IMG/VR virus record: IMGVR_UViG_3300025890_000006
Span: 1-37,340 of that record
From: a virus
Length of the DNA stretch: 37,340 nucleotides
Reading direction: 5' to 3' (one strand)
Shown: in pieces, positions 10,413 to 11,134 of the stretch
How positions within the stretch are numbered: the stretch's first letter is position 1
Layout of the letters: each line of letters starts with the position of its first letter
Program-made: the position numbers and the translations under genes
Notes under the pieces: model-generated
Seen by the model: only the letters and a program-made list of their open reading frames with translations
Database searches by the model: none
What the model was told of the DNA's origin: nothing

Positions 10413-10535
10413 AATTTCCCTCTATTGATCATGTCGATCGATTGACCTTTGTTCGACATGTCCATCACATCCGTCCTGCATTCCTCAGAATGACTTGACG
10501 GCGAATGATCCGATGGCATTTGAGCAAGGCGATCC

Positions 10536-10592
10536 TTTTTACGTGCTAGATCGGCCATTGGATAGATCGAAGGTATGTTTTTACGTGCTAGA
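10536..10592. repeat. two exact copies of TTTTTACGTGCTAGA spaced 42 bp apart
   Basis: Copies at 10536..10550 and 10578..10592. Confidence 0.85.
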
Positions 10593-10659
10593 GCCTAAAA
10601 AGCCCTCCTGAGTACCTCCCTACCGATTTTAGAGCTATTCCCGCTCTGCAGGCTTTAAT

Positions 10660-10787
10660 GCATTCATAGGGATACCCTTTTAAGCCTCGTAGAGGTGCCT
10701 AGGGCTTGCTTTCATCCGAAAGGAGGGTAATCGGACACATTCACCCCAAAGCCCCTCTTGAAGCTCCTCGGTCATTCCTATGAATGC
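10660..10787. repeat. long-range inverted repeat (11 bp perfect, extendable to 14) enclosing about 100 nt with nested hairpins
   Basis: gcattcatagg (10660..10670) pairs with cctatgaatgc (10777..10787). Inside it are cctc-gta-gagg, gggctt/aagccc and ctttc-atcc-gaaag. Confidence 0.8.
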
Positions 10788-11060
10788 CCTTTCCCTCGTA
10801 CCCCTTTACCCTATAAGCTCATATCGATGACAAAACGGCTTAATAGGGCTAATCGGCTCAAACGAGTGGAGGGTTGGTCGATGATAACTCTTTTTCCGAG
10901 CCCAAGGCTGGCGAGCTTGTAGGCTTGGCAAGCGGAGTGGTGGCGGTGTCCTGACAAGGCAATCGTCTTGGGCGGTAGGCGAGCCCGAAGGGCGAGGCTA
11001 ATGGGCGAGCTTGCGAGCCCATAGCCCATGCGATAGCCACCACTTCCTCAAGCCTGTTCA

Positions 11061-11107
11061 ACTACTAGTAGTAGTAGTGGTATATATATAGCCCACCACT
11101 ACTACTA
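11061..11107. repeat. trinucleotide-repeat palindrome with (TA)5 centre
   Basis: ACTACTAGTAGT is a perfect palindrome (11061..11072). The stem tagtagtagtgg (11069..11080) pairs with ccactactacta (11096..11107) around tatatatatagccca. Confidence 0.85.
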
Positions 11108-11134
11108 ACCAATGCAACTTCGTAAGAGAATAGT

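Follow-up and report, generated by a model that had tools for sequence, protein, structure and literature searches.

A covarying plus-strand element, most likely an RNA, and an adjoining exchangeable cassette in the non-coding region beside the helicase gene of uncultured marine phages

Long irregular hairpins in untranslated 3' or intercistronic RNA are known from the sib/tI retroregulator of phage lambda and the RNase III hairpins of T7, with an extended form confined to read-through transcripts. Other described elements that invite comparison here are intrinsic and Rho-dependent terminators, the ColE1 RNA II and IncQ ssiA/ssiB elements of plasmids, and the stem-loops that border exchanged cassettes in T4-type phages. 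In addition, ~8,500 candidate structured phage RNAs have been catalogued from IMG/VR (PMC10690425). We analyzed IMG/VR virus record IMGVR_UViG_3300025890_000006 over its whole length of 37,340 nt (the window) with a focus on a 722-bp non-coding gap at 10413-11134 and on the conserved core at its right-hand end (about 10860-11110, plus strand), which consists of a long stem plus a palindromic hairpin with a TATATA loop. The right-hand third of the gap is a folded nucleic-acid element on the plus strand that occurs family-wide and lies outside Rfam; the folded core is most likely an RNA. Like the catalogued candidates, with which it was compared by description only, the core is intergenic, covarying, present in IMG/VR contigs and without an Rfam model (PMC10690425).

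On the open reading frame (ORF) map the gap extends, in plus-strand orientation, from the stop codon of an ORF of 70 amino acids (aa) to the stop codon of a helicase gene on the minus strand. A sequence-only reading of the window had described it as a gene-free stretch in an otherwise gap-free genome and had left open whether it is a replication origin or one or more structured RNAs. The stretch is indeed the largest gap in a greedy ORF map, while the genome is gap-free only in rough terms, with other gaps of 289 bp (8596-8884), 251 bp (20785-21035), 137, 118 and 106 bp. One or more missed small protein-coding genes are a very improbable explanation. ORFs of 54-72 aa do occur on both strands, four of them touching the gap, but a search for frame conservation in relatives found none: the tblastn matches jump frame in L001, L002 and L003, whose helicases are 87-95% identical to that of the window, and stop codons are present in all frames of the conserved blocks. 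Moreover, a 27-nt insertion, a single-base deletion and the replacement of a whole cassette are tolerated in the close relative L199. The four ORFs, lacking a conserved frame, were rejected as hidden genes, and the earlier statement that no credible ORF is present stands.

The gap is more stably folded than its dinucleotide shuffles on both strands (z = -4.2 for plus, -3.75 for minus), and its GC content of 0.47-0.53 is at or above the genome mean, compared with 0.41 in the gap at 8596-8884. An Rfam scan and a check for covariation, both proposed in the sequence-only reading, gave different answers. The Rfam 15 covariance models at the gathering score had no match in the whole window or in 14 relatives, and at E values up to 10 the window and relatives yielded only generic hairpin matches to microRNA, small nucleolar RNA and CRISPR-repeat models; ARAGORN found no tRNA or tmRNA gene in the window. 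Covariation was found for the right-hand core.

Relatives were retrieved with the helicase and comprise 79 IMG/VR loci, 80 metagenome loci and one contig from a metagenome-assembled genome (MAG), ~160 contigs altogether. Gene order is the same throughout: after the helicase comes a non-coding region, 182 to ~1,000 nt or more in length, and then a plus-strand gene, which is the 70-aa ORF, another small ORF or, directly, a helix-turn-helix (HTH) gene. More than 70 distinct sequence variants of the core are present. The arms of P1, the basal helix of the long stem, lie just after the helicase stop codon in 133 of the 135 relatives that have at least 200 nt beyond this codon.

The long stem with its branched top spans 10922-11054 on the plus strand (clade-wise RNAalifold). 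P1 is formed by GGCTTG at 10922-10927 and CAAGCC at 11049-11054, arms that pair in every clade, and P2 by GGAGTGGTGGC at 10934-10944 and GCCACCACTTCC at 11036-11047; the two helices, both read on the plus strand, make a stem of roughly 20 bp. Above them are interior hairpins at 10950-10972, at 10983-10993 (GCCC-GAA-GGGC) and at 10996-11026 (arms GGCTAATGGGC and GCCCATAGCC, loop GAGCTTGCGA), again on the plus strand. The GC-rich block noticed in the sequence-only reading, with its GGCGAG copies and the GCCC-GAA-GGGC hairpin, corresponds to this branched interior. GGCGAG occurs at 10910, 10978, 10991 and 11004, and given only 31 copies genome-wide on both strands, four within 100 bp represent a real cluster; GGCGAGCTTG is present twice, at 10910 and 11004. 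These features, as well as direct repeats and an AT-centred palindrome, had been located correctly.

The AT-centred palindrome, which a repeat finder places at 11066-11107, is hairpin 1 of the core (plus strand), with arms TAGTAGTAGTGGT at 11069-11081 and ACCACTACTACTA at 11095-11107 and the loop ATATATATAGCCC. It is unique in this genome and ends 27 nt from the helicase stop codon, and the linker between it and the long stem is usually T-rich in the family. Hairpin 1 was detected by blastn at 58% helicase identity and is kept in most clades of the family, where it has 13-23 bp, a loop that contains UAUAUA in most clades, and an end 20-35 nt from the helicase stop; in class V a short GC hairpin with a TTTA loop takes its place. 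Between clades the arms change compensatorily while the TATATA loop stays. In L009, L051, L208, L213 and L218 the first 80 nt after the helicase stop contain the 5' arm of hairpin 1 in inverted form, with (ACT)n for (AGT)n.

The single-stranded 5' flank of P1, CGAGCTTGTA (10912-10921, plus strand), is invariant in classes II-V and reads on the minus strand as the ACAAGCTCG motif. In the structural model its GAGC may pair with GUUC after P1, and extension pairs beyond P1 are predicted in class IV. Farther upstream, the 'U' segment AGTGGAGGG (10865-10873, plus strand) is complementary to sequence at or beside hairpin 1, making a closing helix or an alternative pairing (P0) possible; the minimum free energy fold of the window pairs 10865-10869 with 11062-11066. 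The base of the long stem is invariant (AGGCU/AGCCU, preceded in most clades by CGAGCUUG(U/A)A). Its top varies by lineage, from a plain apical hairpin in group I, the most numerous clade, to 3-way or larger junctions elsewhere, and interiors are swappable between clades, as in L002, where window-type arms enclose a class III interior. When the P1/P2 arms of all clades were combined into one consensus, only P1 was in register, with bulges that differ by clade. When viral contigs were scanned for the 14-mer AGCCTACAAGCTCG, most matches were due to chance, and the P1 context was encountered only in the same phage family.

The helices of the core are kept by compensatory changes across homologues. 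In group I (MAFFT alignment, 22 sequences) 96.5% of cells are paired and 12 pairs are changed on both sides; none of 500 shuffles reached the covariation score, and the signal was lost when pairing partners were slid by 1-3 columns. Covariation in group I also links the 3' arm of hairpin 1 to the U segment, with 85% of cells paired, 4 pairs double-changed and 0 of 500 shuffles matching. P1, represented by 27 distinct arm sequences from all clades, has 4 invariant and 2 covarying pairs. The consensus of class IV, the window's own clade, includes 64 pairs, 4 of them compensated among four sequences, and the pair A10954-T10966 of the window is C-G in L279. A covariance model built from 14 distant group I viral contigs located the element in ~66 independent metagenome loci, with the best match always on the strand opposite the helicase. 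Applied to the window, this group I model matches at hairpin 1 only; in the very similar L279 its match spans P1 plus hairpin 1.

All strand evidence points to the plus strand, the sense strand of the small plus-strand genes and the antisense strand of the helicase. Consensus energies favor the plus over the minus strand in 5 of 5 clades (-45.5/-38.8, -70/-55, -53/-46, -51/-41 and -46.4/-45.1), and the window core has folding z scores of -3.5 (plus) and -2.5 (minus). Wobble pairs agree with this: group I has 26 G.U cells vs 2 A.C cells, and class II has 45 U.G cells at 7 positions, with 99% pairing on the plus strand and A.C mismatches in the same places on the minus strand, although these cells come from related sequences and the independent events are fewer. 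The U.G cells of class II belong to hairpin 1 and originate from C/U variation of its 5' arm opposite an invariant run of G. Since runs of G.U pairs are tolerated in RNA and hardly in DNA, a plus-strand RNA is the most economical reading. The structured-RNA option of the sequence-only reading is therefore upheld for the right-hand ~250 nt by covariation, wobble and plus-strand energy, while the left part of the gap has turned out to be an exchangeable cassette (below).

The same wobble runs bear on the other option, that the gap is a replication origin or part of one, which we regard as unlikely. Two variants can be distinguished: hairpins in unwound plus-strand DNA could signal where priming or loading takes place, as the ssi sites do in IncQ plasmids, or a structured plus-strand transcript could act as a primer or form an R-loop, like ColE1 RNA II. 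Class II has as many as 6-7 G.T pairs in a row, which are tolerated in RNA but would destabilize a DNA helix. The location of the core does suit an origin. It adjoins a RepA/DnaB-like helicase (AAA_25) in every relative and keeps its linkage to the helicase side despite variation of the other flank, and genes for a family A polymerase and an exonuclease are present in the phage. As with ColE1 RNA II and IncQ ssiA/ssiB, there is a structured single-stranded element beside replication genes, here with a RepA (AAA_25) helicase and a family A polymerase; unlike those systems, the window has neither iterons nor an AT-rich region, both hairpins are on the same strand, and no RNase H or primase site is recognizable. 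Further points in favor of an origin are the plus-strand G-run of 10-14 nt in class II and the (AGT)n/(ACT)n arm motif, which recurs in several stems and survives inversion.

In some relatives the corresponding intergenic region also contains iteron-like direct repeats, 3-5 in number. These CTGACACWGCCAACC arrays, with copies spaced 26-51 nt apart, lie near the 3' end of the HTH gene in group I and group II relatives (L026, 2304-2409; L045, 4587-4768; L037, 5179-5307), and several of the relatives' contigs break inside them. The motif is absent from the window, where the gap has no iteron array (at least 3 regularly spaced direct repeats of about 17-22 bp) but one two-copy 15-nt repeat without tandem arrangement. 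Nor does the gap contain an AT-rich block beyond the 9-nt loop of a hairpin, cumulative GC skew is monotonic with no turn at the gap, and an initiator protein was not identified. The origin option thus finds no positive support within the gap itself, in the form of iterons, an unwinding element or a skew turn. A more origin-like AT-rich gap exists elsewhere: the second-largest gap (8596-8884, GC 0.41), between the divergent terminase and HTH genes, has a hairpin with T7 behind it (8633-8653), a tract with two copies of CCCCCCTC (8708-8723) and AATCGCATA repeats (8725-8745), and is a priori a likelier place than the 722-bp gap for promoters or an origin.

The reading we favor, tentatively and short of calling it probable, is that the core works in cis at the 3' end of the rightward transcript, as a module that both terminates or insulates transcription where the two units converge and protects the 3' end. 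The gap would be the folded non-coding 3' region of the rightward unit (the HTH gene hth171 and small ORFs up to 10412). Rho would load on C-rich, poorly folded untranslated RNA (10729-10830), the large stems would provide pause or termination points plus 3' protection, and the core would in this way stop and insulate rightward transcription before its antisense entry into the replication operon and give the rightward mRNA a 3' end that resists nucleases. We infer the transcription of the gap, the termination or insulation and the involvement of Rho from the arrangement described in the following.

The core is always at the distal end of the plus-strand unit, whichever gene precedes it, with no plus-strand gene after it. 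In the window a C-rich, G-poor tract (10729-10830, plus strand), with which the exchangeable cassette ends, lies directly before the G-rich core, with a C/G ratio of 3.1-4.0 in 78-nt windows that ranks among the top 6 of ~2,900 genome windows. In its composition the tract resembles a Rho-loading site, and a comparable C-rich window precedes P1 in most relatives. As in Rho-dependent terminators, ~100 nt of apparently untranslated sequence with a C/G ratio of 3-4 is followed by strong hairpins within 60-250 nt, so that by composition a C-rich window and then a folded core are found in the order expected of such a terminator; unlike the case of described Rho-dependent terminators, the likeness is one of composition alone, and the signal is weaker in most relatives.

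Several properties of the core are also those of intrinsic terminators, including tandem terminators at convergent junctions: stable stems with a GC-rich base (GGCU/AGCC) end a transcription unit, and relatives have a T-rich tract after P1 or, in group I, TTTT after hairpin 1. The 10 nt after P1 include 5-7 T in ~60% of variants, and it is the group I members without this T-rich tail that carry TTTT after hairpin 1. The top of the stem is dispensable, group I having a plain hairpin in place of the junctions of other clades, which fits a function at the base of the stem; in an intrinsic terminator, too, function would reside in the stem base and apical inserts would be tolerated. The core also shares a property with lambda sib/tI, in that P1 is flanked by two mutually complementary segments, one upstream and one downstream, and by analogy terminated and read-through RNAs may fold differently. 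It differs from sib/tI and the T7 hairpins in that neither of these two segments is coaxial with P1, and there is no sequence similarity.

A number of observations weigh against this favored 3' module. No canonical intrinsic terminator (GC-rich stem of at least 5 bp, loop of 3-8 nt, at least 5 T within 8 nt 3' of the stem) was called by the scanner in 10413-11134 on either strand, and none was called in relatives either, despite their T-rich tails. The tails in the window, TGTTCAAC after P1 and AACCAATG after hairpin 1, are without a U-tract. A textbook intrinsic terminator does follow the major capsid gene (about 415-460, minus strand; GGGGAAGCCGAT...ATCGGCTTCCCC, then TTTTCTTTTTT), and canonical terminators are thus used in this genome. 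Unlike intrinsic terminators, including the genome's own, which looks different, the core has stems of 13-25 bp, loops of 8-13 nt or branched tops, and basal and loop nucleotides that are sequence-invariant. A plain terminator leaves unexplained the invariant AGGCT/AGCCT base, the CGAGCTTGTA flank and the TATATA loop, as well as the compensatorily kept branched interiors. Plus-strand wobble pairs also occur in hairpin 1, which comes after the T-rich tail of P1, so at least some transcripts must read past P1. The lineage with the inverted arm cannot form hairpin 1, yet it persists (five samples). Finally, the C-rich signal in most relatives (2-3) is near the 95th-99th percentile of the genome, and only when taken as the maximum. 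Because of the frozen base and loop, the kept interiors, the missing U-tract and the wobble pairs of hairpin 1, both a stand-alone RNA and an origin remain under consideration beside the 3' module.

A stand-alone functional RNA, acting in trans or as a scaffold that binds protein or nucleic acid (for instance a decoy, regulator or anti-defence RNA), is a possibility against which we lean. Such an RNA would have a length of ~240 nt in the window (about 10865-11107), down to ~125 nt in the smallest relatives, and would be closed by pairing of its 5' end (the U segment) with its 3' end (the arm of hairpin 1); the covariation between these two segments is like that of a terminal closing stem. The invariant unpaired and basal nucleotides (CGAGCTTGTA, AGGCT/AGCCT, the TATATA loop) suggest specific recognition, and branched interiors are kept by compensation (GGCG..CGCC vs GGCCG..CGGCC, CATA/TATG vs CTTA/TAAG). 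In groups I and II a (G/A)ATAAT-like motif is conserved ~10-25 nt upstream of the U segment, and absence of the element from Rfam is likewise consistent with an RNA of its own kind. However, the smallest versions leave only ~50 nt between the preceding stop codon and P1, and no sigma-70-type promoter is detectable, none scoring above shuffle expectation in or near the gap of the window. The interior is not conserved between clades and is absent in group I, leaving no common 'active' core. The complementary word CAAGCTCG was considered as a target or recognition word, with 10 genome copies vs 1.4 expected and 9 of them on the minus strand vs ~0.7 per strand, but other top 8-mers are in at least equal excess. 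It was dropped as other 8-mers are equally frequent and relatives have no enrichment outside the element; its abundance on the minus strand is probably a codon-usage effect.

A related interpretation, which we also consider possible but doubtful, is that the core belongs to an undescribed class of phage RNA with a function of its own beyond termination, for example in priming or licensing replication beside the helicase gene, in the manner of ColE1 RNA II, or as a trans-acting or protein-binding RNA. The stem base (CGAGCUUGUA-AGGCU...AGCCU) and the UAUAUA loop could then be specifically recognized, and the lineage-specific branched inserts and upstream cassettes would be accessory RNA modules.

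The left-hand part of the gap differs from the core in its evolution. 'Module A' (10413-10770, plus strand) is an exchangeable cassette, shared by some relatives (71-80% identity with L005, L007/8 and L015, partly with L003) and replaced by unrelated DNA in others (L001, L002 and L199). It contains a hairpin over the stop codon of the 70-aa ORF (10408-10413/10421-10426), a hairpin CATGTCGA/TCGACATG (10430-10437/10453-10460) that is compensatory with respect to ACGTCGA/TCGACGT in relatives, a further hairpin at 10471-10501, the 15-nt direct repeat TTTTTACGTGCTAGA in two copies 42 nt apart (10536-10550 and 10578-10592) and AAAGCCCTCC..CCTCC motifs, all read on the plus strand. The signal for a consensus structure is weak (z = -0.3 to -2.5 in short blocks; -3.9 for plus vs -2.6 for minus in a long block); the module as a whole has no clear strand preference and is conserved in sequence, weakly so in structure.

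At the junction of the cassette and the conserved part lies the palindromic hairpin CATTC-CTAT-GAATG (CATTCCTATGAATG, 10773-10786), of which the genome has two exact copies only, the second (CATTCCTCAGAATG, 10479-10492) residing inside the hairpin at 10471-10501. A 'long-range helix' between 10660-10673 and 10774-10787 in the sequence-only reading did not survive: it is an artefact of two copies of one CATTC-N4-GAATG palindrome, a degenerate and an exact one, L199 lacks its left arm, and it was rejected as a conserved helix. The metagenome contig L199, with a helicase 99% identical to that of the window, is the same as the window from 10771 rightwards except for one 27-nt insertion, and left of 10771 it has a different non-coding module (L199 1580-2075 vs window 10413-11137). 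The point of divergence coincides with the palindrome (10771-10786), and the same palindrome is found at other cassette borders in L003, L007 and L279. This alignment indicates a recent cassette exchange between near-identical phages, and the left-hand 360 bp would be a cassette bounded by CATTC-N4-GAATG hairpins where related phages recombine. The arrangement is like the promoter-early stem-loop (PeSL) cassettes of T4-type phages, in which small stem-loops border non-essential cassettes that are swapped between close relatives; here too the break between window and L199 coincides with a conserved stem-loop. Unlike in PeSL, no early-promoter motif accompanies the palindromes, and the exchanged cassette is without an ORF. 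The left part is better described as an exchangeable cassette than as an origin or a structured RNA.

These observations raise the question of whether the repeats and palindromes of the gap act only as DNA, as operators for HTH or ribbon-helix-helix-like proteins and as joints for cassette recombination, without any RNA function. For the gap as a whole this is decidedly unlikely, given that it would leave the plus-strand wobble bias and the multi-helix covariation of the core unexplained, and that promoters were looked for and none found. The cassette swap at 99% helicase identity, breaking exactly at the CATTC-N4-GAATG palindrome, the recurrence of this palindrome at other cassette borders, the 42-bp spacing of the TTTTTACGTGCTAGA pair, which is constant in four clades, and the conservation of module A in sequence more than in structure are all in keeping with it. 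A DNA-level role therefore probably holds for the left part only, where it is compatible with the favored 3' module of the rightward transcript as well as with the stand-alone RNA and the origin.

The window is a complete circular phage assembly: positions 1-37 and 37304-37340 are identical over 37 nt, which leaves a circular genome of 37,303 unique bp. Nearly all genes are on the minus strand, the exception being a small plus-strand island that encodes hth171, an HTH protein of 171 aa (8885-9400), followed by ORFs of 110, 61, 80 and 70 aa up to 10412. The last of these (10200-10412, plus strand) borders the gap on the left and has no profile match, and profile searches found nothing for the neighboring small proteins. 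By eye the 70-aa product is ribbon-helix-helix-like (KRIGFHCMV strand, then two helices). Its position makes it a natural candidate for binding the TTTTTACGTGCTAGA repeats just downstream.

On the right, the helicase gene (11135-12292, minus strand) is of the RepA/DnaB type (Pfam AAA_25, E = 1e-25), and upstream of it are genes for a PDDEXK nuclease, a deoxynucleoside monophosphate kinase, a family A DNA polymerase and an exonuclease. The 286-aa product of the neighboring gene (12487-13347, minus strand) matches no profile in Pfam, PHROGs or NCBIfam; the label 'primase' given to it earlier is thus unsupported by profiles, and of the two only the helicase was confirmed. A 697-aa protein encoded after the terminase (4335-6428, minus strand), at the position expected for a portal gene, likewise has no match in Pfam, PHROGs or NCBIfam.

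The phage family is abundant, uncultured and marine. No cultured relative was found in the phage collection (helicase at most 39% identical to any record), and with the closest terminase only 32% identical an annotated homologue is lacking; the DNA of the gap has no match among 50,697 phage records. L279 (JAURNO010000019.1), a 7-kb contig with a helicase 91% identical to that of the window, is binned in a MAG of the Verrucomicrobiota, which is the sole, weak hint of a host. Three of the relatives' contigs end at one place, inside a tandem repeat that a fourth contig reads through; these shared ends were considered as genome termini and rejected in favor of an assembly break in the repeat.

Relative to Rfam, homologous sequences make the core a well-supported new candidate RNA motif, of unproven function and of a kind already known. 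It is distinguished by a frozen stem base with a growing top and, next to it, by cassette exchange at a small palindrome. Should it prove to be a functional RNA, the small set of phage non-coding RNAs would gain a well-supported motif; if it is merely a terminator or insulator, it would be ordinary biology with an unusual anatomy. A frozen base whose top grows from a loop to multi-way junctions is an uncommon evolutionary pattern, as is a non-coding cassette swapped between near-identical genomes at a small palindrome, and the two patterns together provide a natural experiment in the evolution and movement of non-coding modules. The element also marks the border of two convergent transcription units, which aids the annotation of these phage genomes.

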